Shown piece after piece: positions 1,055 to 23,273 of a DNA stretch of 64,000 bases. Where the stretch lies: positions 256,001 to 320,000 of the forward strand of contig CAVQUB010000011.1 of NCBI GenBank assembly GCA_963716725.1, in the 5' to 3' direction. How positions within the stretch are numbered: the first letter of the stretch is position 1; each line of letters begins with the position of its first letter. The notes under the pieces were generated by a model. It had not been told where the DNA came from. It did no database searches and worked only from the letters and a program-made list of their open reading frames with translations. The DNA is from an uncultured delta proteobacterium (GTDB taxonomy: Bacteria; Myxococcota_A; Polyangia; Polyangiales; Polyangiaceae). Both the position numbers and the translations under genes were made by a program.

Positions 1055-1122
1055 AGATCAAAAAAAAACGATCTTGTCGATCCTCCATCTGAAAAAAGAT
1101 CCCCGATCGGCCGGCCGATCTT
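1055..1122 (-). terminator. Palindrome/T-tract element: probable intrinsic terminator(s) or regulatory region between the hydrolase and SNF2 genes
   Basis: Perfect palindrome GATCGGCCGGCCGATC (1105-1120) and AGATC-N10-GATCT (1055-1074). The A6 and A9 runs read as U-tracts on the minus strand. Confidence 0.45.
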
Positions 1123-1166
1123 CTGCAATGGAACCTACATGGACTCACACGCGGTCGCCGCGAGCG

Positions 1167-3173
1167 TCACGGCGCGGGGACCTTGCCCTTCGGATCGTCC
1201 ATCAAGTTGCGCACGAAGCCCGCCGCCTGGGCCATGGCCGCGGGGATGTCGTAGATCACGAAGTGGCCATCGCTGGCGTCAGAGGCCTTCCACTGCACGA
1301 GCACGCCGCTGGCGGCGCCGCCGGCGAGGTTTCCCGAGAGCCCCCCGGCGGGGATGGTCACCGGCGTGAGATCCGACCACTCGAGCTCTTCGATGGGGTG
1401 GATCAACGGAGCCTGCGGCGGCAGCCCCAGGGCCACGGCTTGGACCTCCATGCCGTGCGGCGGGGTGTAGTTGTCTCCCGATCCGTCGGCGTTGACGCCC
1501 TCGGTCATCATCGTCGATTTCGGCGCAAAGCCGGCGCGGGGGCGCCGCACGATCATGGGCACGTAGTGGATCGGATCGGTCGGATCCACGATGCTCTGCG
1601 CCAGTGAGATGGCCGGGTGCAGCAGGTTCAGCTCCTCGACCTCGTCGCCCAAGAGGCCGACGAACACGAGCTTGACCAGACCGGCGATGTCCACGGGCTT
1701 GGTCTTCTCGAGCAGCGCGATGCTGATCATGCTGCCCGAGCCGCTGAGCATGCCGCCCCGCGCTTGATCGTCGACGGCCAGAAACATGGGACCGTTGATG
1801 CCGCCCTGCGAGTGCCCGAAGAACGCCAGCTTGTCGGGGTCGAAGCGGATCTCGGAGCCGCCGGTCACCGCCGCCGGGATCACGATCTTGGTCTCGGTGA
1901 ACAGGCGCGCCTGCTGCACCACGTCAATGGCGGACTGCGGGCCGTTGGCGCGCGCAGCAATCGGGTTCTGGATGTTGAAGAACAAGATCTCGGGAGAACC
2001 CGCCGTCGCCCCAGGGCGATCGCCGTGGAAGATTTGGTCGATGCCCATGGTCGCAACGCAGCGCGTCGCCAGGGCCGGACCCTCGTCGGCAGGACCGATG
2101 AAGCTCCGGTAGTTGCCGCCGGTGCCGTGGGCGTAAACGACGATGGGGTAGCCACTGGCTGGCATCGGGCAGGCGGCAGCGAGCGGCACCGTAATGGCAA
2201 AACGCAGGTCGAACTCGCTCTGCAGCTCGGGCTGCCCGTTCGCGTCGAAGGCGAGCATGCCGCCGTCACCATATTTCACGAAGGGCAGCTTTCCCTTCTG
2301 GTAGTTCGGCGACGGGCCGTAGCGCCCCTCGTAGGTCTCGTAGCCGCTGGTCTGATCCGTCTTCTTCAGCGTGCCGTCGATGATCTTGGGCGCGGCGGTG
2401 CTCTTCAGCACATGATCGCGGATCTTCGCGGTCTCGCCCACCGGATCGTTGGTGGTGAACACCGTGAGGTGCACGATGGACCTCTTGGCGATGCCCGCCG
2501 TCTCGAGCTCGGTGATGGCGTCGGCCCAGGCGGCCTTCGCCGACGACGTCGGACCGCTGGCGCCGCCGGTGCCGAGCACGGCCCGCAGAGCCTTCGCCGG
2601 AGCGAGACTCGCCCCGCTCTCGGCCCGCACGCGATCGGTCACGACCAGCGCGTAGCGGGTGTTCGGCCGGAGTGGGAAGCCGAGCGCCGGCATGAACGCC
2701 AGGGTGTTCGGTCGCCAGTAGGCGCCCTCTTCGGCGCGGAAGAAGGTCGTGACGCGCTGGCGAGCGCCGTGGTCGGGCGAAGCAGGATCGACGTCGATGA
2801 GCTGCACGCTCGCGTCCGTCTCCAGCGATCCCTTCGGCGTGGGCAAGCTGGTCGGATCGAGGCCGACGGTGAAGCGCAGAAAGCCCGACGCGGCCGGCGA
2901 GAAGCCGGTCAACACGCCTTTCATCGAATTGATGTAGTCGATGAGGATCGGCTTCTCTCTCGGGTTCGGGTAGCCCTCGAAGCGTACGGTGCCATCGCTC
3001 TCTTTGCGCAGATCGCTGGGCCACGGCTGATCGAAGAAGGTCTCCTCCGAGAGTTCGGAGAGATCCGCAGGCACGACGAAGATGCTCTGGCCACCCGCTG
3101 ACGAGCCTCCCTCGTCCGTCGAGCCACACCCCAAGGTCAACACGAGCCCCAGCGTCCACCAGCACCCACGCAT
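1167..3173 (-). CDS. Lipoprotein with N-terminal Ig-like region and alpha/beta-hydrolase (lipase/esterase-like) domain
   Basis: Lipobox LTLGC; oxyanion-type YAHGTGG; nucleophile elbow GHSQGG; C-terminal DGHF. Confidence 0.75.
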   Translation of the reverse strand: MRGCWWTLGLVLTLGCGSTDEGGSSAGGQSIFVVPADLSELSEETFFDQPWPSDLRKESDGTVRFEGYPNPREKPILIDYINSMKGVLTGFSPAASGFLRFTVGLDPTSLPTPKGSLETDASVQLIDVDPASPDHGARQRVTTFFRAEEGAYWRPNTLAFMPALGFPLRPNTRYALVVTDRVRAESGASLAPAKALRAVLGTGGASGPTSSAKAAWADAITELETAGIAKRSIVHLTVFTTNDPVGETAKIRDHVLKSTAAPKIIDGTLKKTDQTSGYETYEGRYGPSPNYQKGKLPFVKYGDGGMLAFDANGQPELQSEFDLRFAITVPLAAACPMPASGYPIVVYAHGTGGNYRSFIGPADEGPALATRCVATMGIDQIFHGDRPGATAGSPEILFFNIQNPIAARANGPQSAIDVVQQARLFTETKIVIPAAVTGGSEIRFDPDKLAFFGHSQGGINGPMFLAVDDQARGGMLSGSGSMISIALLEKTKPVDIAGLVKLVFVGLLGDEVEELNLLHPAISLAQSIVDPTDPIHYVPMIVRRPRAGFAPKSTMMTEGVNADGSGDNYTPPHGMEVQAVALGLPPQAPLIHPIEELEWSDLTPVTIPAGGLSGNLAGGAASGVLVQWKASDASDGHFVIYDIPAAMAQAAGFVRNLMDDPKGKVPAP

Positions 3174-3242
3174 GGCGGCGTTCTATCATCATGCGAGGAA
3201 CGCCGCGAGGACGGCCGCCGCAAAACCGGCTAGAAGCTCCCC

Positions 3243-4325
3243 GTGAGCTGGGTGCTCGTGCTCGACCCTCCCCCAGGAGACGCCGCTCGGAAGGTCGGCG
3301 GCCTCGCGCTCGCGCTGCGCCTCGCTCTGGACGCCCAAGCCGGCGGCGCCAGCGCCGTCGTGGTCGCCTCCGAACTCGCCCCGCTCGTGCCCGTGCTGCA
3401 AGACTCCCGCCTGAAGATCCCGGTGGTCTCCGAAGCTCCCGCAGACGCCCGGCGAGTGAGGGTCCCAGCGAGCTTCGTGCTGCACCGTCAGCTCTTCAAG
3501 CTGCTCGCGAGCACCCTCGACTCAGATCGCGATCTCGCTCGCGACCCCTTCCCCATCGACGCGCCCTTCGGCTTCGAGCCCATCGACGTGGTCGACGCTC
3601 CCAGCGCCCGCCGCGCCGAGCGCGCGCTGTTCCGCGCGCTGCGCAAGCCTCAAGACGGCTGGACCAGCCGCTGGCTCAACCGCTACCTGAGCCTCACCCT
3701 CTCGCGACTTCTCGTGAAGACTCCGCTCCGACCCAATCAACTGTCGGTGGGCATCTTGGCCGTCGGTCTGATCGGGGCATGGCTCGCGTCTCGCGGCGAC
3801 TGGGCGTCGATGGCCGCGGGCGCTTTCCTGTTCCAAATGCAGAGCATCCTCGACGGCTGCGACGGCGAGATGAGCCGCATTACCCACCGCGGCTCGCTGA
3901 TGGGCCAGTGGCTCGACACCGTCGGGGACGATCTGACCAACTACAGCTTCTTCGGCGCCACGGGTTGGGGGCTGTACGCCGCGACCGGCAGCTGGGTGTA
4001 TCTGATCGCCGGCATCGTGACCGTGGTGTGCGGACTCATCACCAGCGGCATCGAGTATCGGTACCTGATCAGGATCGGCTCCGGAGATCTGCTCGCGTAT
4101 CCGCTCAGCGCGCCGGGCTCCGAGGCCAAGGGTGGGTGGTTCGACGCCATCCAGCCGCTGTTCAAGCGCGACACCTTCGTCTTTCTCACCCTGCTGGCCG
4201 CCCTCGCCGGGCTGCTCGGACCGATGCTGGTGGTGTTCTCCCTCGGGGGCGTCGGCATCTTGCTGTCGGTCATCGGCGCCGAGCTGCGCATGGCACGGGA
4301 GCGCCGGCAGGCCGCGACGCGCTGA
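3243..4325 (+). CDS. CDP-alcohol phosphatidyltransferase family protein with N-terminal extension
   Basis: Signature LDGCDGEMSR...G..LDTVGD; PNQLS motif; several transmembrane segments. Confidence 0.9.
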   Translation: MSWVLVLDPPPGDAARKVGGLALALRLALDAQAGGASAVVVASELAPLVPVLQDSRLKIPVVSEAPADARRVRVPASFVLHRQLFKLLASTLDSDRDLARDPFPIDAPFGFEPIDVVDAPSARRAERALFRALRKPQDGWTSRWLNRYLSLTLSRLLVKTPLRPNQLSVGILAVGLIGAWLASRGDWASMAAGAFLFQMQSILDGCDGEMSRITHRGSLMGQWLDTVGDDLTNYSFFGATGWGLYAATGSWVYLIAGIVTVVCGLITSGIEYRYLIRIGSGDLLAYPLSAPGSEAKGGWFDAIQPLFKRDTFVFLTLLAALAGLLGPMLVVFSLGGVGILLSVIGAELRMARERRQAATR

Positions 4326-5937: not shown

Positions 5938-7416
5938 GTGCCCCGCCGCCGCCTCTTCTCAATTGGTGCTTGGCTCGCTCTGCTCACCAGCGCCTCGGTG
6001 GCCCGCGCGGCTGGACCGCTGGGACCGGAGGGGTCGCCGATCGCCACCAGCAACTACCGCATCGATCTGACCCAAGGCGTCGTGCTCGCGGGGACCCGGG
6101 TGCTCGGGCTCGCCGGCGCCTACGTCGCCATCGCCGAAGGGGTCGACGGCAACTCCGCGAACCCGGTGGCGCCGGCCATGCGCTCCCCACACTCGCTCGA
6201 CAACTTCGACTACGACGTCGGCTTTGGGTTCACTCTGCCCGCGGCCGTCGGCGGCACCGACCTGTTCAACAGCGGAGACCGCACCGACGTATCGACCTCC
6301 CAAGATGCCGCGCTCTTCCTCGATCTGGCAGGGAACCTACAGTTCGGCCGCTGGGGAACGGGCGTCTCGCTGCACTACACCACCTTCGAAGTCGCGGATC
6401 CCAGCGGCCAGAGCCTCGGACTCAACGCGCGCTTCGGCGGCATTCGACTGCAGGTCGCCCGCGCCTGGCTCGATGGCCAGTTCGTCCTGGGGCTCGGCAG
6501 CCGCGGGACCGGCCTGGTCATTCAGAACAAAGATCCCGAACCGGGCGAGCCGGCTCAGCTCTTCGACATCGCGGGTGCGGCCGCGGAGATTGGCGCGCTC
6601 GTGCGTCCCAACGGAGCGCCCTACCGTATCGGAGTGGCGGTGCGCTCGGCGGTGGTGACCAACGCCCTCTCGAGTGACGTCGCGGCCAACGCCGACGGCG
6701 ACCTCGTCATCTCGCGCAACGGCACCGACCTCTACCTTCCCAACGAGGTGACGCTGCCGTGGGACATCGACCTGGGACTGGCAGTTCAGCTCGGTCCGCG
6801 TCCGCTCAATCCGCGGTGGGTCGATCCCGACGAGGCTATCCGGCGCCTCGACCGCTACTTGGCTTGGAAGGCCCGCGAGCGCCGACGCCGCGCAAGCGCA
6901 ATCTCGCGGGGAGCGACGCCCGCCCGCAACGCAGCCCTCGAGGCCGAACGCGTGGGCGACGAGGCGCTCGACCAAATCCACCGCGAGCGTTCCGCCCGCG
7001 CGATCCGCACCGAACTCAAACGGCGAGCGCGGCAGCTCGAGCGCTTCTACGTGCTCGTCTCCAGCTCGCTTCAGCTCACCGGTCCGGTCGACAACAGCGT
7101 CGGCGTCGAGTCGTTCATCGAGCGCCGGGTCCAGCGCTCCGGCCGCAAGGCGACCTACACGCCGCGGCTCGGTGCCGAGACCGAGCTCGTGCCCAGTTGG
7201 GTGCGATTCCGCGCGGGAACCTACCTGGAGCCCACCCGCTTCGAGTCCCAAGGCGCGAGAGCGCGCTTGCACGGCACGGTGGGTTTCGACCAAAAGCTAT
7301 TCCCGTGGACAGTATTCGGTATCTTCGACGAAGGCACGGAGTGGAAGTTGTCGGCCGCGCTCGACGGCGCACGGCACTACCTGAGCTGGGGCGCCAGCGT
7401 GGGGATCTGGCGATGA
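5938..7416 (+). CDS. Outer-membrane beta-barrel protein, FadL-like
   Basis: Signal peptide from GTG 5938; LGLAGAYVAIAEG...NP resembles the FadL hatch; amphipathic strands; C-terminal SWGASVGIWR. Confidence 0.6.
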   Translation: MPRRRLFSIGAWLALLTSASVARAAGPLGPEGSPIATSNYRIDLTQGVVLAGTRVLGLAGAYVAIAEGVDGNSANPVAPAMRSPHSLDNFDYDVGFGFTLPAAVGGTDLFNSGDRTDVSTSQDAALFLDLAGNLQFGRWGTGVSLHYTTFEVADPSGQSLGLNARFGGIRLQVARAWLDGQFVLGLGSRGTGLVIQNKDPEPGEPAQLFDIAGAAAEIGALVRPNGAPYRIGVAVRSAVVTNALSSDVAANADGDLVISRNGTDLYLPNEVTLPWDIDLGLAVQLGPRPLNPRWVDPDEAIRRLDRYLAWKARERRRRASAISRGATPARNAALEAERVGDEALDQIHRERSARAIRTELKRRARQLERFYVLVSSSLQLTGPVDNSVGVESFIERRVQRSGRKATYTPRLGAETELVPSWVRFRAGTYLEPTRFESQGARARLHGTVGFDQKLFPWTVFGIFDEGTEWKLSAALDGARHYLSWGASVGIWR

Positions 7417-8255
7417 AGCTCTGGTGGCTCGCCCTGCTGCTCACCGTCTGCTCGTGCTCCAAGAAGGAGCCCGCGCAGGTCGAGCGCACCGAGCCCTGGC
7501 TCGCCAACCCGCCCGACGCCACCACTGCCTTGCGCGCAAAGTTCGTCGTCACCGACCGGTGTGAAGCGAACCTGCTTCTCAAGGCAAAGGAGGGCTCACT
7601 GCGCGGCGTAGCGCGCGTCTGTAGAGGCGAGCTCGATCTGAACCTGAGCGATCTGAGCGACAGCCGCGGCACCCTCTCGGTGGACATCGCGAGCATCGAA
7701 ATGCGCGGTGACGGCGACGCGGGGCGCGGCGAAGAGCAAACTCGGGAGGCGCAGAACTGGCTCGACGTCGGCGCGAGCCGACCCGAGGCCGAGCGGGAGC
7801 GACTGCGCTGGGCGACGTTCACCATCACCGGGATCACGAACACGAGCCACCCGAACGCAAACGCGGGCCGACGTGAGCGGGTCGAGCCGGAGGCCGAAGA
7901 GCCGCCGTCCCTGCCCGACGACGACGCCGACGGCGCAGCGCCGAACCCCCGCGAGCGCCGCTCCGTGACCATGACCGCACGCGGGCACATGGTGCTGCAC
8001 AAGGTGCGCGTGGACGTCGAGGTCCCCCTCCGCGCAACCTTCCACTACCGCGGCCGCGCCACCGACGACTCGACCCCGAACAAAGTGCAAATCACCACCC
8101 GTCGGCCCTTCTTGGTCTCCCTCGCGGCTCACGACATCAAGCCGCGAGACGCCGCGGGGGTGTTTCAGGCGCAGGGCATGAAACTCATGGGCACCACGGT
8201 GGGAGCCGACGCACGGGTCAGCCTGTCGGCCAGCGCGGTGCTGCAGCAACCCTGA
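7413..8255 (+). CDS. YceI-like lipid/polyisoprenoid-binding lipoprotein
   Basis: ATGA overlap with the upstream gene; MKLWWLALLLTVCSC; GTLSVDIASI, ATFTIT and GHMVLHKV match YceI-type barrel strands. Confidence 0.65.
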   Translation: MKLWWLALLLTVCSCSKKEPAQVERTEPWLANPPDATTALRAKFVVTDRCEANLLLKAKEGSLRGVARVCRGELDLNLSDLSDSRGTLSVDIASIEMRGDGDAGRGEEQTREAQNWLDVGASRPEAERERLRWATFTITGITNTSHPNANAGRRERVEPEAEEPPSLPDDDADGAAPNPRERRSVTMTARGHMVLHKVRVDVEVPLRATFHYRGRATDDSTPNKVQITTRRPFLVSLAAHDIKPRDAAGVFQAQGMKLMGTTVGADARVSLSASAVLQQP

Positions 8256-12598: not shown

Positions 12599-13633
12599 TC
12601 ACTCTTCCGCCTTCTTCCACTCGGCTTGGTAGCTCATGCCGAGGGTCAGCAGTCGCTGCAACAGGTGCGAATAGCGGATCCCCGCGAACTCGGCGCTCTC
12701 GGCAAAGTCCTCACCGTACTTCACCTCGGGGTTCGGGTTGGCCTCCAAGACGAAGACGCGCCCGTCCTCGCGCAGCCGCAGGTCCATGCGCGCGTAGCCG
12801 CTGAGCCCGAGCGCGCGGTAGACGCGCTTGGCGATGTGCGCGATCTCTTTCTCCTGAGCCTCGCCCAGGTCCTTCGCGCGACGGGTCCGGATCTTGTACT
12901 TCTGCTGGTAGTCGATGTCCCACTTCAGCTTGGCGGTGGCAATGTGGTGGGTGCCCTCGGGGAGTTTGTCGAAGGGCAGCTCCCAGACCGGAAGCGTCTG
13001 AAGCCGTTGGTTGCCGAGCACGCCGACGTAGAGTTCACGACCCTCGATGAACTCCTCGGCGATGGCGTCCACGCCGAAGGTCTCGTGCATGAAGGTCACA
13101 CGCTCCACGAGCTTTTCGTCGGTGGTCACCACCGAGGCCTGAGAAATGCCCAGGCTCGCCTCCTCATTCACGCTCTTGACGAGCAGCGGGTAGGCCAGGC
13201 GTCGGGGCTTGCGCGGGCGGCGACCCCGGGGAAATACGTGGAACTTCGGCGCCCGGATCCGGTGCGCCGCCATGATCTGCTTCGACAGCGCTTTGTCGCG
13301 CGCCAGCATCATGCCGCGCGGGTTGCAGCCGGTGTAGGGCCTGCGCAACAGCTCCAGGTAGCTGACGACGTGCATGTCGTAGACAGCGACTCCGTGAAAG
13401 TGCACGAGCAGGTTGAAGGTGACGTGCGGGTCGTGCTGGGTGATGGCCGCGCGGATCACGCCGAGATCACTGCCCACCCCCAAGGTGATCACCTCGTGAC
13501 CGAGCTCTTCGAGCCCGGCCAAGACGTCGTACTCGGTGGCCCACTTTGCGATCTCCTTGTCGGAGTAGCCCTCCACGGTCTCGGGCGGCACGAGATCGTC
13601 GTGCATCAAAACGAGGACGCGGAGCTTCTTCAT
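12599..13633 (-). CDS. D-Ala-D-Ala-ligase-like ATP-grasp protein
   Basis: YTG...DKALSK; LVKSVNEEASLGI; EEFIEGRE; RMDLR...LEANPNP; lacks the canonical Ddl N-terminal GGxSxE. Confidence 0.85.
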   Translation of the reverse strand: MKKLRVLVLMHDDLVPPETVEGYSDKEIAKWATEYDVLAGLEELGHEVITLGVGSDLGVIRAAITQHDPHVTFNLLVHFHGVAVYDMHVVSYLELLRRPYTGCNPRGMMLARDKALSKQIMAAHRIRAPKFHVFPRGRRPRKPRRLAYPLLVKSVNEEASLGISQASVVTTDEKLVERVTFMHETFGVDAIAEEFIEGRELYVGVLGNQRLQTLPVWELPFDKLPEGTHHIATAKLKWDIDYQQKYKIRTRRAKDLGEAQEKEIAHIAKRVYRALGLSGYARMDLRLREDGRVFVLEANPNPEVKYGEDFAESAEFAGIRYSHLLQRLLTLGMSYQAEWKKAEE

Positions 13634-14706
13634 CGCACGAGCCGGTGGTGACCCTCGTGCAGATAGTTCATCGTCTGCACGGTCAACAAGACTAGTGCAT
13701 CTTGCTTGGCAATGTCTTCCGTTCGATCCGTGCGCATGTCCAACTCCTCGCAGCGGAAGATCATTTCTTCGAGCACTTGATCGATCGTGTACTGGTACTC
13801 GCCGGTCCAGCGGGCGACCATGCGACGGATCTCCGGCCGCACCTTGCGCAAGAAGGCCGCGGCGCTCTTTCCCCGCACTCCTTCCGGCAGAGGCGGAAAC
13901 AGTCGCCTCAGGTCGGCATCGTAAAAGTTTGGGTGATCGAGCCCGTAGCGCTTCTTCTTCGCGGCGTAGTGCTCTCCGAGGGTGATTTTGAGCCCGCTGA
14001 GCACCTCGATGCGCGCTCGGGAGCGCAGCACCGGCTTGGCGTCGGCGACGTCTCGCATCAGCTCATCGACGAGCTCGAGCTTCTTCAAAGCGGGCCAACC
14101 GAGGTAGCGCTTGCGCCAGCGCGAGTTGGGGTCGAGCCACACCGCGAAGCTCTCGGCCCAGTCCTCTGCCGGGTGGCTCTGGGCGTACCACATGTCCAAG
14201 TGCTGGACGTAGCTGCGGCTGTAGGGCTTCGGCTTGTAGAATCTGGAGTACGGCGCCGCGAAGCTCCCGAAGGTGTCACGCCAACCTTTTCGGTAGTGCA
14301 AGCGGTACGCTGTGTCGATGGCGTGGGCGGCCTCGTGCCGAAGGAGCCGCATGCACCAGCGCGGCGTGCCGCCCTCCACGTCGAGGATCTGCCGCTGCTC
14401 GAGCTCCATCAGGCGCGGGTGCGCCAGATAGAAAGGGATGGCGATGCCCGGGACGCCATCTGGCGAAAACCACTCGGTCGACAGCCAGACGTGCGGTCGA
14501 AACCCGAGGCCCCGAGCTTCGAGATCGGCGTACAGGCGCTCGACGCGTTCCTCGATCACGGTCCCCTCGATCTCGATGGGCAAATCGCAGAGGCGCATCT
14601 CGAGCAATTTGTCGTCGGCAAGGTCCTTCCAGCGTGACGCTCGGCGTGCCGGTCCCTTGCGACCCGGCGCGGGCGCCGATCGCGAGTTCGTGCGAGGCGA
14701 AGGCAT
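13630..14706 (-). CDS. Putative zinc-binding metallopeptidase (zincin)
   Basis: HEAAH (HExxH); YAQSHPAEDWAESFA; ATGA-coupled to the ATP-grasp gene. Confidence 0.85.
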   Translation of the reverse strand: MPSPRTNSRSAPAPGRKGPARRASRWKDLADDKLLEMRLCDLPIEIEGTVIEERVERLYADLEARGLGFRPHVWLSTEWFSPDGVPGIAIPFYLAHPRLMELEQRQILDVEGGTPRWCMRLLRHEAAHAIDTAYRLHYRKGWRDTFGSFAAPYSRFYKPKPYSRSYVQHLDMWYAQSHPAEDWAESFAVWLDPNSRWRKRYLGWPALKKLELVDELMRDVADAKPVLRSRARIEVLSGLKITLGEHYAAKKKRYGLDHPNFYDADLRRLFPPLPEGVRGKSAAAFLRKVRPEIRRMVARWTGEYQYTIDQVLEEMIFRCEELDMRTDRTEDIAKQDALVLLTVQTMNYLHEGHHRLVR

Positions 14707-14858: not shown

Positions 14859-16440
14859 ATGTTTTCCGAAAAGAACCCTGCCGATCTCTCCCCGCTCTCG
14901 AGGGTCGAAGCGACCAACCTCGAAGAGCTGTCCCGCATCGTCGCTGCTGCCCGGGAGGCGCAGACCGAGTGGGCCGAGCGCTCGGTGGACTCCCGAGCTC
15001 GGGCGTTGCTCTCGCTCGCGCGGACCCTCCTGGAGCGACGGGCGGAGGTCTTGCCGATCTTGTCCGAGGAGACCGGGCGCAGCGAGACCGAGTGCCTGAT
15101 GAGCGAGCTCGCGGGCGCCGTCGAGTTCTTCAAGCAAGCAATTCGCGCGGGCAAGAAGGCCCTCACCCCCGAGAAGATCAAGAATCTCCGCCCTGGACTA
15201 TCCGGGCAAGAAGGCCGTCGTCGAGCTGCTGCCGCGAGGAGTCGTCGGCATCATCGCTCCTTGGAACTACCCCCTCGGCAACTTCATGAAGGCGCTGGTC
15301 CCCGCGCTCTTGAGCGGCAACGCCGTCGTGCTCAAGCCCAGCGAGCAGACGCCGCGCACCGGGGCCTGGCTCGCCAAGGTCGCCGGCGACGTGTTGCCCA
15401 AGAACTTGGTCGGCCTGGTGCAGGGCGCCGGGGACGTCGGCCAGGCGCTGCTCGATGCTCCCATCGACGCCATCGTCTTCACCGGCTCGGTCACGACCGG
15501 CAAGCGCGTCGCGGTGCGCGCCGCTGAGAGACTGATGCCGTACTCGGTGGAGCTGGGAGGCAAGGACGCCGCCATCGTGCTGGCGGACTGCGATCTGGAT
15601 CGCACCGTCGCGGGCATCGCCCAGTGGGGAATGCACAACTCGGGGCAGAACTGCTCGGGTATCGAGCGGGTCTACGTCGAAGCGTCCATCGCCGATGCCT
15701 TCATCGAGAAGCTGGGACGCTTCGTGGCCTCGCTGCGCGTCTCGCCGCAGACCGCGGCGAGCGATCTCGGACCGCTGCAGAACGAGCCGCAACTGCGCAT
15801 CGTCGAGCGCCACGTGAGCGACGCGAAGGAGCGCGGCGCTAGGGTGGTGTGCGGCGGCGAACCGACGGGCAAGGGCTTCGGGTATCGCCCCACCGTGCTC
15901 GACCGCTGCACGCACGAGATGACGGTGATGCGCGAGGAGACCTTCGGTCCGGTGCTGGCCGTGATGCGCGTCGAGGACGCCGAAGAAGCGTTGAAGCTCG
16001 CCAACGACTCGAGCTACGGCCTCAACGGCTCGGTCTGGACGCGGGACATCGCGCGCGGAGCCGCCCTCGCGCGGCGCCTCTCGGTCGGCGTGGCCCTGGT
16101 GAACAACCACTCGATCACCGGCATCCTGCCCGAGACCCCGTGGACGGGAGTCAAGGACACCGGACCTGGCATTGCGTCGAGCCGTCACGCCTACCTGACC
16201 TTCACGCGCCCACGCACGGTGTTCGTGGACACATCGAGCAAGCCGGACCCATGGTGGATGCCCGCGGACGACAACCTGCGCGCGTTCGGCGAAGCGCTGA
16301 TCGAGCGCCAGCTGCACGGCGGATTCGGGGTCCTCCTGCGACTCGGCGGCCTGGTCGGCAAGCGCGTGAAGGCCATACAGGCGGCCGTGAACGCACCGGC
16401 GCCGAAGGCGCTGCCGGCTCCGAAAGATAGGGTGGACTGA
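14859..16440 (+). pseudogene. Aldehyde dehydrogenase interrupted by a +1 frameshift at about 15183 (pseudogene or sequencing error)
   Basis: The N-terminal frame (…ETGRSETE…PEKIK) joins ISALDYPGKKAVVELLPRGVVGIIAPWNYP if one A at 15183 is removed. Downstream LKPSE, FTGS, ELGGK, GQNC and EETFGP are intact. Confidence 0.85.
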
Positions 16441-16459
16441 AGCGGGTTTGTCCCGATCC

Positions 16460-16484
16460 GAAACCATCCGCGCGCCTGGACGTA
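16460..16484 (+). promoter_or_regulatory. Putative ECF sigma-factor promoter for the MNIO cluster
   Basis: GAAAC-N16-CGTA, 50 nt upstream of ATG 16535; RBS AGGAGG at 16520-16525. Confidence 0.55.
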
Positions 16485-16534
16485 GCTATCTGGGCGACTA
16501 TTGGTCCAGAATCGTACATAGGAGGTCCCCGGAC

Positions 16535-16897
16535 ATGCCCCACAAGCTCAGCTTCGCCACCATTGCAGCCACTCTCGCCGCTCTCAGCACCGCGGCCTGC
16601 GGTGGCACGAACGCACCCGCGGAAGCACCCGTCGCTGGGCGAGAAATCCCGGCGGCGTCCGAGTCGGCGCCCGAAGCAGCCGCAGCTGAAGACCAAGCCA
16701 CCCCCACCCCGGCCACGGACGCGACCGCGGACCCACCCGCGGCGGGAACTGCGGACGCCAATCCCACGGATCCTGCGGGCGCCGCGACGGTCGCCCCTCC
16801 CCCCGCTCCGGTGGTGAAGAAGGTCACCCCCAAGAAGGTCACCCCAAAGAAGGCTGCCGGAGCCAAAGCCGCCTGCGGCGCTGGGACCTGCGGCTGA
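16535..16897 (+). CDS. Putative MNIO-modified RiPP precursor lipoprotein (C-terminal KAACGAGTCG)
   Basis: Strong RBS; signal peptide with lipobox-like STAAC; Ala/Pro/Thr-rich disordered linker; KKVTP repeat; terminal CG-x3-CG; 11 bp upstream of DUF692. Confidence 0.8.
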   Translation: MPHKLSFATIAATLAALSTAACGGTNAPAEAPVAGREIPAASESAPEAAAAEDQATPTPATDATADPPAAGTADANPTDPAGAATVAPPPAPVVKKVTPKKVTPKKAAGAKAACGAGTCG

Positions 16898-16908
16898 ACC
16901 GGGGCCGC

Positions 16909-17778
16909 ATGTCGCGCGAGGGGCGTGAACTGGACGGAGTAGGGCTCGGCCTGCGCTGGGAATTCCTCGAGGCGGTGCTCGACGGACCAGAATTGGACGT
17001 CGCATTCTGGGAGGTCTGTCCCGAGAACTACATGCACCGCGGCGGCTACTACCCGGACGCGCTCGCTCGCATCGCCGAGCGCACGCCGGTGGTGACCCAC
17101 GGCCTGTCGCTCTCCGTCGGCGCGAGCGATCCCGCGCCGATGGACTACCTGACCGAACTCCGAACGGAAACCCAGCGCCTCGGCACGCCGTGGCACAGCG
17201 ATCACCTATGCCTCTCGAGCGCAGGCCCGCTCATGTTGCACGAGCTCATCCCGCTGAAGCAGAGCAGCGCGAACGCGATTCGCGCCGCCGAGCGGGTTCG
17301 CCGCGCGCGCGACGTGCTGGGACTCCCGATGTTGGTGGAGAATATCACCTGGTACGCGCACCCAGGCCGGCGCGAGATCCCCGAGGCCGATTTCATCACT
17401 GAGGTCGTCGAGCGCGCCGACGCGAGCCTGCTCCTGGACGTCAACAACGTGTGGGTCAACTCCCAGAACCACGGCTTCGATCCGCGAGCTTTCATCGCGG
17501 CGCTGCCCCTCGGTCGCGTGCGACAGATCCACGTCGCCGGCCATACCAAGACCGACTCCGGCTTGATCCTGGACACCCACGGAGCGCCCGTGGTCGACCC
17601 GGTGGTCGATTTGCTCGAGTGGACGCTGGAGCGGACCGGTCCAATGCCCGTCCTGCTCGAACGTGATCATCAGGTTCCCGAGCTGTCTGAGCTGCTCGCG
17701 GAAGTGCGCCGGCTCACCGAGGCTTACAACCGCGCGCTTGCGCGCCGCAAGGAGGCACCGCTTGCCCGAAGCGCTTGA
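16909..17778 (+). CDS. DUF692 multinuclear non-heme iron oxidative enzyme (MbnB/TglH/ChrH family)
   Basis: GVGLGLR, EVCPENY, HGLSLS, WHSDHL, LVEN, LLLDVNN, QIHVAGH, DTHG and LLERD motifs. Confidence 0.95.
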   Translation: MSREGRELDGVGLGLRWEFLEAVLDGPELDVAFWEVCPENYMHRGGYYPDALARIAERTPVVTHGLSLSVGASDPAPMDYLTELRTETQRLGTPWHSDHLCLSSAGPLMLHELIPLKQSSANAIRAAERVRRARDVLGLPMLVENITWYAHPGRREIPEADFITEVVERADASLLLDVNNVWVNSQNHGFDPRAFIAALPLGRVRQIHVAGHTKTDSGLILDTHGAPVVDPVVDLLEWTLERTGPMPVLLERDHQVPELSELLAEVRRLTEAYNRALARRKEAPLARSA

Positions 17779-18568
17779 GGTCGCCATGGCCAAGCTGGCG
17801 TTCGGCCCGGAGATCGCCGCGGACGACCCGGAAGCCGTGCGCGCCTGGCTCACCGAGAGTCAGGTGAGCGATGACGACGCACGAGCCATGCTGGAAGAGG
17901 GCGTCGAGCGGCTGTTCGTCTATCGCGGGTTGATCCGCTCGACGCTCCGCGAAGCCCTCCGGAGCGCCATCCCACGGACGATGGAGCGCTTGGGCGAGGT
18001 CTTCGACGAGTGCTTCGCTCGCTACCTGCGCGAGGCCGGTCCGCGCTCGCGCTACCTGCGCGACGTCACCACCGAGTTCCTGGACTTCTGCGCTCCGCTG
18101 TGGGCAATCGATCCCCGCGTGCCGGCCTGGGCCATGGACCTCGCGCGGCACGAGGCAGTGCAGATCGTGGTGGCCTCCGAGCGCGCGCGTCTGCCCACGC
18201 GCGAACCGGGCGAGCTCGCGCTCGCCTCCGCCGTCCGCTTCATCGAGGCGACTCGCCTCATGCGCTATGACTACGCGGTGCACCGCCTGAGCGACGCGCT
18301 CGCCGACCGAACTCCGCCCGCAGCAGAGGCGACGGCCCTCTTCGTGTACCGCAGCCCCGAGCACGAGGTGCGCTACCTCGAATTGAGCCCGCTGGCTGCG
18401 GCCATCCTCGAGCGGCTGATCGCAGAAACGCCGCTCGAGAGCGCCATTGTCGGCGCCTGCGACCAACTGGGCGTGGTCCTCGACGACGAGGGCGTGCGAG
18501 GCACGGCGGCCTTGCTCGCCGATCTCGCCGAGCGCGGCGCGCTGCTCGGCGCTCTCGAACCCAGCTAA
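17762..18568 (+). CDS. DUF2063-type MNIO partner protein (HvfC/BufC-like)
   Basis: TTG 17762 with RBS AAGGAGG, overlapping the DUF692 stop; RLFVYRGL...P and DLARHE motifs; C-terminal winged-helix/RRE-like segment (LADLAERGAL). Confidence 0.8.
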   Translation: MPEALEVAMAKLAFGPEIAADDPEAVRAWLTESQVSDDDARAMLEEGVERLFVYRGLIRSTLREALRSAIPRTMERLGEVFDECFARYLREAGPRSRYLRDVTTEFLDFCAPLWAIDPRVPAWAMDLARHEAVQIVVASERARLPTREPGELALASAVRFIEATRLMRYDYAVHRLSDALADRTPPAAEATALFVYRSPEHEVRYLELSPLAAAILERLIAETPLESAIVGACDQLGVVLDDEGVRGTAALLADLAERGALLGALEPS

Positions 18569-18577
18569 GGTGACGAC

Positions 18578-20671
18578 ATGACGGCCCCGAGTTCCCGCGT
18601 CCGCGACTCCCTTGGAATTGCCGGTCTGACCATCGATGGCAAGTACCTGATCGAGCGCGCGGTGGGCGAGGGCGGCTTCGCCATCGTGTACCGGGCCGAG
18701 CACGTGATCTGGAAGCAGCCGGTCGCCATCAAGTTCTTCAGCGAGCTGTCCAGCGTTCACGTCGACCAACGCGACGAGATGCAAAGGGCGTTCATCGAGG
18801 AAGGTCGGCTGCTCACCCAGCTCTCGAGCCAGACCGCGGCGATCGTCCAGGCGCGTGACGTCGGGACCTACACCACGCCCGAAGGCCGCTGGATGCCCTT
18901 CATGGTGCTCGAGTGGCTCGAGGGCCGATCCCTCGAAGACCTGATCGTGACGGAGTCCACGGCGGGACGCTCGCGCTTCACCATGGGAGAGGTGTTGAGG
19001 CTGCTCGGCCCGGTCGCGGCAGCCCTCGACGTCGCCCACAGCCAGGGCATCGCGCACCGAGACGTCAAGCCGCCGAACATCTTCGTGTTGGGCGAAGAAC
19101 CCCGGCACGGCGTCGTCACCATCAAGGTGCTCGACTTCGGCGTGGCCAAGCTGATCACCGACAACACCCAGATGAAGGCCGCAATGGCCAAGACGGGGAC
19201 GAACGTCACGTCGTTCACCCCCCAGTACGGCGCCCCCGAGCAGTTCAGCCGAACCTACGGCGCCACCGGGCCGTGGACCGACGTGTTCGCCCTGGCCCTG
19301 GTGGCCGTCGAGATGCTCTCGGGTCGACCCGCGCTGGACGGGGACGACGTCGTCCAGCTGGCCTTCGCCGCAGGCAATCCCGAGACGCGGCCGACGCCGC
19401 GATCCTTCGGGATCGAGCTCGGCGACGCCGTCGAGCAGGTGCTGCGCAAGGCGCTGTCGGTACAGCCCGCCGCGCGCTACGCCCGCGCGGCCGAGTTCTG
19501 GGCTGCGTTCGAGCTGGCCGCGGGCGGCAGCCGGGCCACCGCCGCGGAGGCCCTCAACGCGACAATGGTGATGCCCGATTCACTGCGTTCGGCCATCACG
19601 CCCGTGCGACCCGCGGGGACCGAGGCCCCGCGTGCCGCGGTCACCGTCGACGCCGCGACCATGACGCCGCGGTCCGCCGCACCGAGCCGCAAAGGGCTGG
19701 CGCTTGCCATCGCTGGGATCTGCGCCGCGGCCATCGCCGCCGGTGCGTTCTTCGCGCTGAGGGGCTCGGGACCGAACTCAGATCCCGCCGGGCCTCCTTC
19801 CTCATCCGCCGCGTCGGCAGCCAGCGTCGCGGCCCCGCTGGGGAGCGCCGAGTCGGCAGCCCCCGCCGCCAAGTGTCCCGACGGCATGTTCACGATCCCT
19901 GCCGGACAGTTCTACATGGGCACCGACGACTCGGCAGCGGCGGACAACCAGAAGCCCGCTCACAACGTCACGCTCGACGCTTTCTGCATGGACGCGACCG
20001 AAGTCACCGTCGCCGCCTACCTCGAGTGCAGCCAGTCGGGCGCTTGCCGGCGTCTGAAGCCCGAAGTGGACTACGCCGGCATGAAGGCGGCCGAAGAGAA
20101 GGCCTTCATGCCGCTGTGCAACGTCGAGGCCAGCGACCGCGGCGATCATCCCATGAACTGCGTCTCGTGGCGGGACGCGGAGACTTACTGTCGCAAGACG
20201 GATAGGCGTTTGCCGACAGAGGCCGAGTGGGAGTACGCCACGCGCGGCCCCGACGGGCGTGTGTTCCCGTGGGGCGACGAGAAACCGACGGTGGCGCACC
20301 TCAACGCCTGCGACGCCGAGTGTCTGAAGTGGTCGAAGCGTGCCGACGTCGGCGTGCTGGTGCTCTTCGAGAAAGAGAGCGACGGCTACTCGGGCACCTC
20401 GCCGGTCGGGAAGTTCCCGGCGGGCAATTCGCGCTTCGGCCCACGCGACGTGGTCGGCAACGTGTGGGAGTGGGTCGCGGATTTCGAAGGCAACTACGCC
20501 GCAACCGAGGCCAAGAACCCCAGCGGCCCGGCTAGCGGCGAGAAGCGAGTGCTGCGCGGGGGCGCGTGGAACGGCGCCCGCGAAGAGTGGTTGCACCCGA
20601 GCTTCCGCTTCGCCGCCGAACCCGACCGCCGCCACCCGGCCATCGGTTTTCGCTGCGCCAAGGGCCTCTAG
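18578..20671 (+). CDS. Membrane Ser/Thr protein kinase fused to an FGE-sulfatase (SUMF1-like) domain
   Basis: GEGGFA, VAIK, HRDVKPPN, DFG and APE; one TM; RLPTEAEWEYA, GNVWEW, RGG and GFRC. Confidence 0.95.
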   Translation: MTAPSSRVRDSLGIAGLTIDGKYLIERAVGEGGFAIVYRAEHVIWKQPVAIKFFSELSSVHVDQRDEMQRAFIEEGRLLTQLSSQTAAIVQARDVGTYTTPEGRWMPFMVLEWLEGRSLEDLIVTESTAGRSRFTMGEVLRLLGPVAAALDVAHSQGIAHRDVKPPNIFVLGEEPRHGVVTIKVLDFGVAKLITDNTQMKAAMAKTGTNVTSFTPQYGAPEQFSRTYGATGPWTDVFALALVAVEMLSGRPALDGDDVVQLAFAAGNPETRPTPRSFGIELGDAVEQVLRKALSVQPAARYARAAEFWAAFELAAGGSRATAAEALNATMVMPDSLRSAITPVRPAGTEAPRAAVTVDAATMTPRSAAPSRKGLALAIAGICAAAIAAGAFFALRGSGPNSDPAGPPSSSAASAASVAAPLGSAESAAPAAKCPDGMFTIPAGQFYMGTDDSAAADNQKPAHNVTLDAFCMDATEVTVAAYLECSQSGACRRLKPEVDYAGMKAAEEKAFMPLCNVEASDRGDHPMNCVSWRDAETYCRKTDRRLPTEAEWEYATRGPDGRVFPWGDEKPTVAHLNACDAECLKWSKRADVGVLVLFEKESDGYSGTSPVGKFPAGNSRFGPRDVVGNVWEWVADFEGNYAATEAKNPSGPASGEKRVLRGGAWNGAREEWLHPSFRFAAEPDRRHPAIGFRCAKGL

Positions 20672-20717
20672 CTGGGGCTTGGGCCGAGCGCCTTCTGTCC
20701 TGTAGACTCCGCGGTTC

Positions 20718-23273
20718 ATGGGCCGAAGCCCCCTCGACCACCCGCGGCTATCCATCATCGATCGCAAGCTCGACGAAGGAGAGCTCGAGGAGGCACAGCA
20801 CCTGCTCGCGCAACTGGGCGACAACTACTTCTTTCGGCACGCCACGACGTACCTGGCGTCGCGCCTGCTGTACTTGCGCGGCACGCTGGACCAGGACGGC
20901 TTGGTCGAGCGTTTGGTCCGAGTCCTCAACGAGACGCACGAATTCCCCGAGGCCGAGGCGCTGCTCGCGCTCGCGCGGAGCGGAACGCTGGAGCGAACCT
21001 CGCACCCGCCGCGAAGCTCGCGCCCTCCCCCGGCGAAGATGACCAGTCAGCCTCCGGGCGCCGAGGTCGAGCTGGCGTTCTCGGGACGCGTCACCGCCGA
21101 AGATCGCAAGCACCTCGTGGCGCCCGAGTTTCCCCGCGCCGGACGCCTTCCGGATCTGGCGGTAGCTCGGGCATCGGATCCGATCCCTGATCTCGAAGTT
21201 CCCGGCTCGGTGCCGCCACCTCCACTCAGTGACGAGCAGCCGGCGCCGCGATCCGCACCGCGACCGGACCGGATGACGCCCGCAGCGCGACCGGACCGGA
21301 TGACGCCCGCAGCCCAACCGGACCGGGTGACGCCCGCAGCGCGACCAGACCGGATGACGCCGGCACACCGACCCAACGACCTGACGCTGGAGCTGCACGA
21401 ACGCAAGGTCCACTCCAAGCGGTCGCAGCCGAACCCCGACGCGAGATATTCGTCACCGACCGGTCTCGAAGAACGCATCCAGCTCACCCGTAAGCCGCAG
21501 GCGAACTCACCTGCGTTCGCGCGACCCGACGCCCGATGCCACACGGAACCGTTGGTCGGCAGCGGAGGGCCGGCGAAGGTCGAGGCCCGCGCCAGTCTGT
21601 TCGAAATCGCCACGTTGCTCGACGCGGGACGAGCCGACGCAGCCCTCGAGGCTTTGTCGGGCCGCTCGGACGCCGACGAGCCGGACCACGCGCTGCTCAG
21701 AGCCCGAGCGCTGGCGCGTCAGGGGCAGACGTTGGAAGCGCTCGCGCTGGCGCGGCGCCTCGGACACGCTCCACTACTGGACCCGACGGTGCGAGCCGGG
21801 GTCGCGCGCCTGGCCATCGAGCTCGACGAGATCGAGCTGGGCCTGGAGCAAGCAGTGCTCGCCCACGAGGATGATCCGACTCAGCCCACCATCAGCCTGA
21901 CCTACGCCTGGGCCGCGCTGAGACGCGCCCGACGAACCGCTGATCCGGAGCTGGTCGCGCGCGCCTCGATGGCCCTGCGCGAGCTGGTCGGAGACGGGGG
22001 TCCCCACGAGGGGCTCCTGCTGGCTCTGCGCGCCTGCGCCGAAGCCCACGCCGGCGATCCGACGCGCGCCCTGAGCTTGGCCGAGCGATCCATCGAGAGC
22101 GAGCCGAGCGCCGACGGACACGCGGCGCTGGCCATGGCTGCCGCGCGCCTCGGCCGACCCAACGACGTGAAGCGAGCGACCGGATGGTTGAAGGCCAATT
22201 GCCCCAAAGAAGCGGCGGCGCTGCAGAAGAGCCTCGACGCTTACGGCGAGCGCTTGTTCGATCTGAGTTCAGCGCCTCATTCGATCCACGCACCGGCGAT
22301 CAACGCCGATCTCGAGGCGTCGATCCTGTGGGGACCGCTCGAACTCGCGGTGTGCGATGGAGACTGGCATCGAGTCTGGGAGACCTTCGCGCAGCTAGCG
22401 GCTGACACCTTCGAACAGATCTCCACGGCGGCCCGCCACGAACCTCCAGCGCTGGCGGCGGTGGCAGCGAGCTTCCTGACCGTCGCGCCGGTCTCCCGCG
22501 ACCTGGCCCCCTATGACCAAACCCCGTGGAGCCTCCGACGCGTCGCGGACCTGCTCGCGCTCTTGGCGCGGGGCGCGTCCGGCGTGCGAGCCACACACCC
22601 GCTGGCGCTCCTGCTGGGCGCCTACGTGGGCGAGACGCTGCGCATGAGCGTGGACGGCCATTGGCAGGGACCGACGAGTGACCCGGTCTCGAGGGAAATC
22701 ATGGGCTCGACTGGGGTCTGGCGTCCCTGCTCGCTGGTCGCCGAGTCGCTCGCGGGCAAGAGCGATCTCGCCGCGGCCGCCGCCGTGGCCGAGCTCGAGG
22801 GCAACCTGCACTCGCTGGCGGCTCATCTGCCCGCGGTGACGCCTATCTGCCCCTGGGATCCGGCGCAATGGCCCGCGCCATCCCGGTTGCCCCACTACGC
22901 GAAGGCCCTGGAGCAATCGGTGATCTCGGTCCTCTGTGCCGGGCGATCGGGGCACCGCCTCGACGGCTCTGTCGCCAGCCTGCTCGCCATCGACGAGCAC
23001 CTCGAGCGAATCTGCCCACGAGCGGCCCCTCCCCAGCCCGACGCGCGATGGTCCCGCCGCGCGACCGTGCTCATCGGTGCCTATCTGGGCGAGACGCTGC
23101 GCCGCGAGACCCCCGGCGAGTGGTCCCGACGCGACGGCCTGGATCTCGGCCCGTCGAGCTACCGGCTCGTGCTGTCGACGGGCCGCGAACTGCGACCCGT
23201 CGAGCACGTCTTCGAACGCCTGAACGCCGGCGCGGATCCGCTTCACGAGTACGCGCTGCGTTCGCTCGGCTGA
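20718..23273 (+). CDS. Hypothetical protein: helical/TPR-like region plus duplicated C-terminal GAYxGExLR domain (DUF3806-like)
   Basis: 851-aa ORF with coding-like codon use; LLGAYVGETLR and LIGAYLGETLR; Pro-rich linker with tandem repeats. Confidence 0.65.
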   Translation: MGRSPLDHPRLSIIDRKLDEGELEEAQHLLAQLGDNYFFRHATTYLASRLLYLRGTLDQDGLVERLVRVLNETHEFPEAEALLALARSGTLERTSHPPRSSRPPPAKMTSQPPGAEVELAFSGRVTAEDRKHLVAPEFPRAGRLPDLAVARASDPIPDLEVPGSVPPPPLSDEQPAPRSAPRPDRMTPAARPDRMTPAAQPDRVTPAARPDRMTPAHRPNDLTLELHERKVHSKRSQPNPDARYSSPTGLEERIQLTRKPQANSPAFARPDARCHTEPLVGSGGPAKVEARASLFEIATLLDAGRADAALEALSGRSDADEPDHALLRARALARQGQTLEALALARRLGHAPLLDPTVRAGVARLAIELDEIELGLEQAVLAHEDDPTQPTISLTYAWAALRRARRTADPELVARASMALRELVGDGGPHEGLLLALRACAEAHAGDPTRALSLAERSIESEPSADGHAALAMAAARLGRPNDVKRATGWLKANCPKEAAALQKSLDAYGERLFDLSSAPHSIHAPAINADLEASILWGPLELAVCDGDWHRVWETFAQLAADTFEQISTAARHEPPALAAVAASFLTVAPVSRDLAPYDQTPWSLRRVADLLALLARGASGVRATHPLALLLGAYVGETLRMSVDGHWQGPTSDPVSREIMGSTGVWRPCSLVAESLAGKSDLAAAAAVAELEGNLHSLAAHLPAVTPICPWDPAQWPAPSRLPHYAKALEQSVISVLCAGRSGHRLDGSVASLLAIDEHLERICPRAAPPQPDARWSRRATVLIGAYLGETLRRETPGEWSRRDGLDLGPSSYRLVLSTGRELRPVEHVFERLNAGADPLHEYALRSLG
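21261..21374. repeat. 4 x 27-bp tandem repeat encoding RPDRMTPAA
   Basis: Unit CGACCGGACCGGATGACGCCCGCAGCG with a few substitutions. Confidence 0.9.

Follow-up and report, generated by a model that had tools for sequence, protein, structure and literature searches.

Captophorins are the peptide products of paired MNIO (DUF692) and PME1 proteins, and all of those characterized carry 5-thiooxazoles (Gadgil et al., 10.1101/2025.11.18.689057), a structure on which the oxazolin authors' own revision agrees (10.64898/2026.06.05.730506). Lipidated MNIO peptides were defined by Chen et al. as DAG-RiPPs, hybrids of lipoproteins and RiPPs (ribosomally synthesized peptides that are modified after translation). 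As described there, NedA of Neisseria dentiae is an EGKCG precursor with a signal peptidase II (SPII) signal that was isolated with NedBC in triacylated form, 12 Da lighter, and copper sequestration at the membrane was proposed for lipo-NedA (PMC13056109). About 16% of bufferin-2 precursors are predicted to be lipoproteins, and Antoine et al. reported hundreds of unclassified small Cys precursors, with Sorangium and Labilithrix tabulated as having MNIO and DUF2063 genes and no recognized precursor (PMC12452194). Here we analyse a three-gene MNIO cassette in a 64,000-nucleotide stretch of an uncultured Polyangiaceae genome (GCA_963716725.1, contig CAVQUB010000011.1, positions 256,001 to 320,000; hereafter the window). 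By its sequence and by analogy with these systems, the cassette very probably makes a membrane-anchored peptide in which the two terminal cysteines are turned into rings that bind metal, with expression from a stress-responsive promoter.

The cassette and its parts all lie on the forward strand of the window:
16460 to 16484, + strand: predicted promoter of extracytoplasmic function (ECF) sigma type, GAAAC (-35), 16 nt, CGTA (-10), from a conserved upstream motif
16520 to 16525, + strand: ribosome-binding site of the precursor gene, AGGAGG, from the sequence and an alignment of upstream regions
16535 to 16897, + strand: precursor gene P0001, 120 aa, called as an open reading frame (ORF)
16535 to 16600, + strand: predicted lipoprotein signal peptide with lipobox T-A-A-C22 (end STAAC), from the lipobox pattern and alignment
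16601 to 16864, + strand: linker, predicted disordered, an acidic Ala/Pro/Thr half then a Lys-rich half, from composition, homologues and a structural model
16628 to 16657, + strand: motif P-V-x-x-x-E-(V/I)-P-A-A, residues 32-41, from conservation in 62 aligned rows
16865 to 16894, + strand: core KAACG-AGTCG, two 5-mer units, from invariant columns and the FonBC substrate rules
16909 to 17778, + strand: MNIO (DUF692) maturase P0002, 289 aa, from a PF05114 match
17762 (TTG) to 18568, + strand: PME1 partner (DUF2063 and NGO1945_C), 268 aa, from domain matches above cut-off

The gene order is precursor, MNIO, PME1. The precursor stop lies 11 nt from the MNIO start, and the partner start at 17762 overlaps the MNIO stop at 17778; position 16460, with which the promoter -35 element opens, is not a gene start. 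The maturase matched PF05114 with 292 bits and the structure 3BWW with an E value of 5.5e-45. It keeps the ERD motif with the catalytic Asp and all ten metal-type residues (H64, D98, H99, E144, D177, N180, H208, D222, H224 and E251), at what we take, by motif, to be the ligand positions. Its partner exceeded the cut-offs of both DUF2063 (39.3 against 27.2 bits) and NGO1945_C (54.2 against 27 bits). The flanks are an aldehyde dehydrogenase gene upstream and, 9 nt downstream, a Ser/Thr kinase-FGE-like gene (Pfam-type scan), and no DoxX, protease or transporter gene adjoins the cassette among the flanking genes of the window. These results bear out the initial annotation, which had described an MNIO RiPP cluster with DUF692 and DUF2063 genes closely following the precursor and none of those three accessory genes adjacent. 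The only DoxX match in the genome, which is 84% complete, is on another contig.

The precursor has cysteines only at positions 22, 114 and 119. Residues 23-94 (72 aa, against the 70 or so of acidic Ala/Pro/Thr linker first annotated) comprise 24 Ala, 14 Pro, 8 Thr and 10 Asp/Glu; the Lys-rich stretch KKVTPKKVTPKK follows at 16817-16852, and the protein ends in KAACGAGTCG. Its AlphaFold model, with a mean pLDDT (predicted local distance difference test) of 58 and a predicted template modelling score of 0.20, has a sole helix at residues 7-17, within the signal, and no fold past it. Both LspA and Lgt genes were found in the genome, and together with the lipobox they make lipidation of Cys22 and removal of the signal the expected processing.

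The family is conserved well beyond this genome. An enzyme-seeded scan yielded 80 loci, and precursors were called in 55 of them by a script that did not require a lipobox. One call (L027) was discarded as false, and the 54 kept comprise 18 close relatives, mostly labelled Polyangiaceae, 15 other precursors of myxobacterial type with CGxGxC, and 21 others. A PROSITE-type lipobox pattern, in the form we take to be standard, occurs in 18/18, 15/15 and 1/21 of these groups, respectively. The studied precursor, its 18 close relatives and seven more found in related genomes form a clade of 26, every member of which carries both the lipobox and the terminal CGxGxC. The lipoprotein-type signal and the conserved two-Cys terminus of the initial annotation therefore stand: neither loss of the lipobox nor loss of the terminal cysteines among homologues, either of which would have told against it, was seen. 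Its restriction to two xxxCG units stands in part, since two cysteines follow the lipobox in 16 of the 26 precursors and three to five in the other 10. A profile search retrieved 58 database proteins, the named ones hypothetical or low-complexity and one mis-named; 52 have the lipobox and 51 the lipobox with terminal CGxGxC, counts that are partly circular by construction.

In 62 aligned rows, L14, C22, P39, C114, G115, G117, T118 and C119 are invariant, while P32, V38, A40 and A41 are kept in at least 90%; the TLAAL stretch of the signal is also unusually conserved. The linker varies from 75 to 123 aa among the 26 homologues, with its last 25 residues net positive in all of them and its first half net negative in 25. 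Compared with seven homologues, the terminal codons show 4-7 synonymous and 0-2 non-synonymous changes. With codon changes mostly synonymous and both motifs conserved, the pattern is more than chance. With the precursor profile, matches were obtained in 18 of 24 genomes belonging to the family. Genomes from the order's other families gave 0 of 16, and a phylum-wide set gave 8 of 151. When the 14 strongest matches were checked in relatives, 13 were followed by an MNIO gene and the remaining locus stops at a contig edge. Four Corallococcus loci (L056, L066, L067 and L073) carry such a cassette as well. The cluster is real and conserved.

Residues 32-41, by their conservation and by modelling, are a candidate recognition site for the partner. 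A complex prediction for the partner with precursor residues 1-60 scored 0.60 (best control 0.00), with at least 84% of contacts common to the runs and a partner pLDDT of at least 62. In calibration, 116 of 157 solved pairs and 2 of 215 mismatched ones attained the mark, and among these, 18 solved pairs and both mismatches scored 0.60 or less. The prediction, which gave no interface, weakly suggests that the partner binds residues 1-60; similar complexes may have been part of the data used for training.

The order precursor-MNIO-PME1 and the x-x-x-C-G double 5-mer are those described for fontiphorin (FonABC, also three genes), gonophorin and oxazolin (HvfABC). The precursor here ends in two sites, compared with seven in FonA and six in HvfA, the latter a substrate of signal peptidase I. 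FonBC modified a two-repeat but not a single-repeat substrate, and tolerated EAACGEGACG as well as Ala or Thr before the Cys, at position 3 (10.1101/2025.11.18.689057); when HvfA was truncated to a single double motif, the loss was 8 Da (PMC11252979). KAACG-AGTCG fits 5-thiooxazole chemistry because its two 5-mers and its Ala and Thr before Cys match these FonBC and HvfA rules, and by this analogy Cys114 and Cys119 are the predicted ring sites. The C-terminal LysC peptide that spans them, AACGAGTCG, has nine residues and a computed neutral, reduced mass of 709.25 Da. In place of the RR and ERDF of 3BWW, the maturase has RW and ERDH; these would correspond to Arg15-Arg16 and Asp249-Phe250 of FonB if the motif assignment holds, in which case loss of the second Arg would fit a core lacking Glu.

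The cassette has the sequence features by which captophorins are recognized: an MNIO with metal ligands and catalytic Asp, an adjoining PME1 with DUF2063, and upstream a Cys-containing precursor of exported type with a small residue after Cys. It also has that of DAG-RiPPs, since a lipobox with an invariant Cys stands, by pattern, on an MNIO precursor of 50-160 aa. It is without the EGKCG repeats of the oxazolin/Buf_EGKCG group: the models NF050137 and NF050188 matched neither P0001 nor its 18 clade relatives at E 0.1, and the HvfB and HvfC equivalog cut-offs were not reached. The DUF2282 and six-Cys Cys-Lys precursor models of bufferins 1 and 2 did not match the precursor, nor did the enzyme reach the BufB cut-off. 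The CPxCGxG motif of the Chryseobasin/ChrH type is absent from the precursor, and the enzyme scored 41.5 of 600 bits with the ChrH model. No Pfam or NCBIfam model matched the precursor at E 0.1. In an MNIO tree of 90 rows (nine duplicate loci left out), the studied enzyme falls in a mostly myxobacterial clade of 50 rows (100/99), apart from 22 rows of bufferin-2 enzymes (100/97); the tree holds no HvfB, FonB or NedB and cannot place the clade among them. The cassette would work like an oxazolin system, yet it is outside the EGKCG subfamily as modelled.

Like lipo-NedABC, the cassette combines a predicted SPII-type signal, Cys-Gly units, an MNIO and a partner, NedA losing 4 Da per Cys. Unlike NedA, which has three EGKCG units, the core here has two units with neither Glu nor Lys-Cys and follows a 90-residue linker, the comparison being one of cores. 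The initial annotation had set this architecture apart from the soluble characterized members, a distinction that the triacylated, MNIO-modified NedA and the predicted lipoproteins among bufferin-2 precursors do not support. Lipidation and copper chelation are concepts already in print, and the cluster is a myxobacterial member of a described peptide class. The C-x4-C spacing, signal peptide, MNIO and DUF2063 are shared with the 'CxxxxC' family (PMC12452194) and with cluster X, which is lipidated (PMC13056109). By its description, the CxxxxC type comes with DoxX and, in 54%, Lactamase_B_2, neither of which adjoins the studied cassette. Published datasets may already list the precursor family, perhaps as the lipidated CxxxxC group. 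The strings CGAGTC, CGEGTC, CGAG and SCGEG are absent from the supplementary tables of PMC12452194 that were searched, which list accessions and of which one is incomplete, and no paper joining MNIO with Polyangi was found in the literature searched.

The promoter gives the cassette a physiological context. GAAAC-N16/17-CGTA stands upstream of 22 of the 26 clade precursors, compared with at most 1 of 26 in shuffles; it was found in none of 284 control windows and before 1 of 36 other precursors. Counts among kin are not independent, and they show conservation rather than significance. The central A of AGGAGG is the sole invariant column of 18 aligned upstream regions. A sigma-70 promoter scan returned 0 sites, and no + strand terminator was found in 16200-21000. 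Because of some circularity in the precursor count and the lack of genome-wide enrichment of the motif, other genes were examined for it; since there is no genome-wide excess at spacer 16, only sites conserved in relatives were used from the 43 loose ones. The motif precedes the bufferin-2 precursor of this genome and 5/5 orthologues, 5/5 orthologues of a YceI-like gene, msrA in 6/19 loci (5/7 genomes of the genus, this one included) and an ECF sigma gene in 11/13 orthologous loci. In the studied genome, the msrA gene concerned is at G000:C11:248092 (L115:1630-2226), about 8 kb before the window start, and the YceI-like lipoprotein gene at G000:C34:123700 (L116:1239-2018).

The ECF sigma gene is paired with the genome's only NrsF match (G000:C5:392742-394006, L114), with the motif upstream, and this pair is the likely regulator of the cassette promoter. 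In four relatives (L017, L018, L019 and L026), ECF and NrsF-type genes directly follow the partner gene; Pfam NrsF is above cut-off in L018 and L019, and the best match of the L017 sigma in the studied genome is the C5 sigma (42%). Four more distant loci carry GTAAC-N16-CGTA. Promoter conservation and linkage to ECF/NrsF genes are thus established, and from them we infer the sigma and its signal. The cassette promoter presumably also resembles that of CarQ, a sequence we did not find in print. A further site at G000:C20:243655 (-) (L151) was set aside, being inside an inverted repeat, TAACCCT-N12-AGGGTTA, before a MerR-like gene (family by eye); the repeat looks like an operator.

The closest described regulation is that of Caulobacter vibrioides, which likewise has two MNIO clusters and one ECF/NrsF pair; its buf1 and buf2 are SigF/NrsF-controlled and copper-induced (PMC11626156, PMC3511200). 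There DoxX is dispensable and buf2 is without it, just as the studied cassette has no adjoining DoxX. Unlike the studied precursor, the Caulobacter bufferins are described as folded, soluble and with four or six cysteines, and the SigF promoter reads GTAACC-N16-CGAA, compared with GAAAC-N16/17-CGTA here. Myxococcus xanthus CarQ and CarR also pair an ECF sigma with a DUF1109 membrane anti-sigma; CarR responds to light or singlet oxygen, and copper too activates carQRS (PMC8156234). The targets described for CarQ/CarR are carQRS and crtIb, unlike those predicted for the C5 pair, and the likeness is one of description. A copper or oxidative-stress role for the cassette gains indirect support from its promoter, which is shared with an ECF/NrsF pair, a bufferin-2 cluster and msrA.

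The second MNIO cluster of the genome (G000:C32) has, at L081:2380-2652 (-), a bufferin-2-type precursor with a lipobox-like ACGG and the same promoter motif. Its MNIO passes BufB (341.8 against a cut-off of 310). AAGAKAC precedes the first core Cys of this precursor and is kept in 5/5 relatives; the studied precursor has KKAAGAKAAC, and the two possibly share a recognition string. A third MNIO (G000:C17, L083:1483-2850) has 455 aa, a C-terminal extension and an Asp in place of one metal His, and no small Cys precursor was seen at its locus.

From sequence and analogy, we consider it probable that the product is a lipid-anchored, copper-binding captophorin with two sites, expressed from an ECF/NrsF stress promoter. 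Copper, heavy-metal or oxidative stress would cause the membrane anti-sigma NrsF to release the ECF sigma. The freed sigma would use GAAAC-N16-CGTA to transcribe the cassette, and would also transcribe the bufferin-2 cluster, msrA and a YceI-like gene. While still cytoplasmic, the precursor would be held by the partner as the MNIO oxidizes Cys114 and Cys119 to 5-thiooxazoles, at -4 Da each, by analogy with every characterized MNIO-PME1 pair. Export, lipidation of Cys22 and loss of the signal would follow, through Sec, Lgt and LspA. Carried by some 90 residues of flexible linker, the two-ring tip would bind Cu(I)/Cu(II) in the envelope and lower free copper there, with several peptide molecules probably sharing one copper ion.

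A number of observations weigh against this reading. Within the precursor, the lipobox has Thr at -3 and is weaker than the LVAC, LTGC and AVAC of relatives, and the KCGExKCG_twice model NF050137 is failed here and passed by the related precursors L046 and L060. The maturase stayed below the curated cut-offs of HvfB, its best NCBIfam match (270.7 against 360 bits), and BufB (263.8 against 310), as did the partner for HvfC, likewise its best match (105.1 against 142). A FonBC E6A substrate was poorly turned over, and one with Arg at position 1 was unprocessed (10.1101/2025.11.18.689057); in the studied core, position 6 is Ala and position 1 is Lys, while the enzyme retains the Arg read, by motif, as the gatekeeper. 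Among the 80 enzyme loci, 25 gave no precursor call, including L005, where the gene is apparently frameshifted. GAAAC-N16-CGTA was found by aligning 18 upstream regions that were later counted too, is missing in 4 of the 26 clade precursors, and occurs genome-wide at 24 sites with spacer 16 and at 7-26 with other spacers. As to copper, no copper-handling gene adjoins the cassette, msrA and YceI as co-targets suggest oxidative stress as much as copper, and Caulobacter SigF responds to chromium and cadmium too (PMC3511200).

One alternative keeps both chemistry and anchor and gives the peptide a main role in oxidant defence or sensing in place of copper storage, its thiooxazole thiols serving as an envelope redox sink or relay in an msrA/YceI regulon, or binding another soft metal. 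We regard it as unlikely. The promoter shared with msrA and YceI-like genes, the low capacity of two sites per molecule, and the response of DUF1109/NrsF anti-sigmas to H2O2 in Bradyrhizobium (PMC3420878) and to light or singlet oxygen in CarR (PMC8156234) would all suit it. The characterized 5-thiooxazole peptides, however, bind copper (10.1101/2025.11.18.689057, PMC11626156), carQRS is switched on by copper as well, and the co-regulated second cluster is of bufferin-2 type.

The lipid anchor could also be a staging post, with a housekeeping protease cutting in the Lys-rich stretch to free a short, soluble, two-ring active peptide, which we hold to be quite improbable. A basic stretch does precede the core in 26/26 homologues, but it varies in sequence and offers no fixed cut site. 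Gadgil et al. left open the cutting of EGKCG products by host proteases (10.1101/2025.11.18.689057), and one DAG-RiPP cluster encodes a prolyl oligopeptidase (PMC13056109); here no protease gene adjoins, and HvfA (PMC11252979) and lipo-NedA (PMC13056109) were recovered from Escherichia coli uncut after the signal. A peptidase-like gene is one of a pair on the - strand of the window (12599-14706), in which a Peptidase_Mx-like gene (13630-14706, below cut-off) overlaps a D-Ala-D-Ala ligase-like ATP-grasp gene; the Peptidase_Mx-like gene had no match in the 80 loci.

There is a slim chance, slightly below that of release, that the two-ring tip serves for signalling and not as a bulk sink. A minimal thiooxazole pair on a long, charge-polarized linker would then sense copper or oxidants in the envelope and pass the signal to a co-travelling membrane partner (the kinase, with its outer FGE-like domain, or NrsF), in a regulon joining two captophorins, msrA and YceI-like proteins, with the enzyme forming a specificity class independent of Glu and Lys.

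We think it very improbable that the enzyme installs another modification on C-x4-C, for instance a ChrH-like macrocycle or a C-terminal change. Such an activity could be read into its two substrate-choice positions, by motif Arg-Trp for Arg-Arg and His/Asn for Phe after the catalytic Asp, and an uncharacterized lipidated CxxxxC group does exist (PMC13056109). FonB variants at both positions nevertheless still made 5-thiooxazole (10.1101/2025.11.18.689057), ChrH motifs are CPxCGxG (PMC13056109), the enzyme is far closer to HvfB (270.7 bits) than to ChrH, and a DUF2063 partner is present. Scarcely credible, finally, is that Cys22 escapes lipidation through a signal peptidase I cut after Thr-Ala-Ala, which resembles an A-x-A site, or that the precursor is an unrelated lipoprotein of the sort met near MNIO genes in the DAG-RiPP screen (PMC13056109), given that Cys22 is invariant in 62 rows, relatives' lipoboxes are canonical, signal peptidase I-type controls lack the Cys, and all but the contig-edge one of the 14 strongest profile matches are followed by an MNIO gene.

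Two further genes of the window recur near such cassettes:
18578 to 20671, + strand: Ser/Thr kinase that also carries an FGE-sulfatase-like domain and a transmembrane-type stretch, from a domain scan; its membership in the system is syntenic only
7413 to 8255, + strand: YceI-like lipoprotein gene, its start placed where it overlaps the stop of the gene before it

Of 18 clade loci, 17 have the kinase-FGE-like gene downstream of the cassette. Because its FGE-like domain is multi-copy (17 tblastn matches in the genome) and distant cassettes are without the gene, we read the association as plain synteny. For the YceI-like gene of the window, Pfam YceI gave 17 bits, below cut-off. A profile built on five such genes, of which four come from the 80 loci themselves, placed a YceI-like gene within 29 of these loci. 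Polyangiaceae and Corallococcus have it upstream of the cassette, others downstream; here this usual upstream neighbour is separated from the promoter by about 8 kb of other genes, the Peptidase_Mx-like/ATP-grasp pair among them. No paper linking YceI with DUF692 was found in the literature searched.

Some loci depart from the common layout. In L007, L012, L025 and L005 (about 1100-3900), an IgGFc-binding-domain gene lies between precursor and MNIO, with precursor and promoter about 2.3 kb upstream. L015 and L003 bear the same assembly label and hold the cassette in two copies; in L015 a frame-shifted stretch of the MNIO covers two of the metal ligands, and upstream there is a transposase-like ORF. 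Related MNIO loci with neither a kept precursor call nor the promoter motif are L014, L016, L020-L023, L027, L028, L038 and L039; another MNIO-partner pair lies on the opposite strand in L023. In the window, the aldehyde dehydrogenase ORF (14859-16440) is split by a frameshift near 15200, either as a pseudogene or through an assembly error. Short metatranscriptome contigs from three runs of one study, with 2-3 differences over 16506-16691, and another contig over 16833-16979 were set aside, since contigs cannot show transcription or its level.

These results bring into the lipid-anchored captophorins a conserved family of myxobacterial precursors to which no Pfam or NCBIfam model gives a name. 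The precursor would be a small natural substrate, with two sites on a nine-residue LysC peptide, for studying how such enzymes select Cys when EGKCG's Glu and Lys are missing. In the Polyangiales, the predicted ECF/NrsF regulon would join two MNIO clusters with msrA and YceI-like genes.

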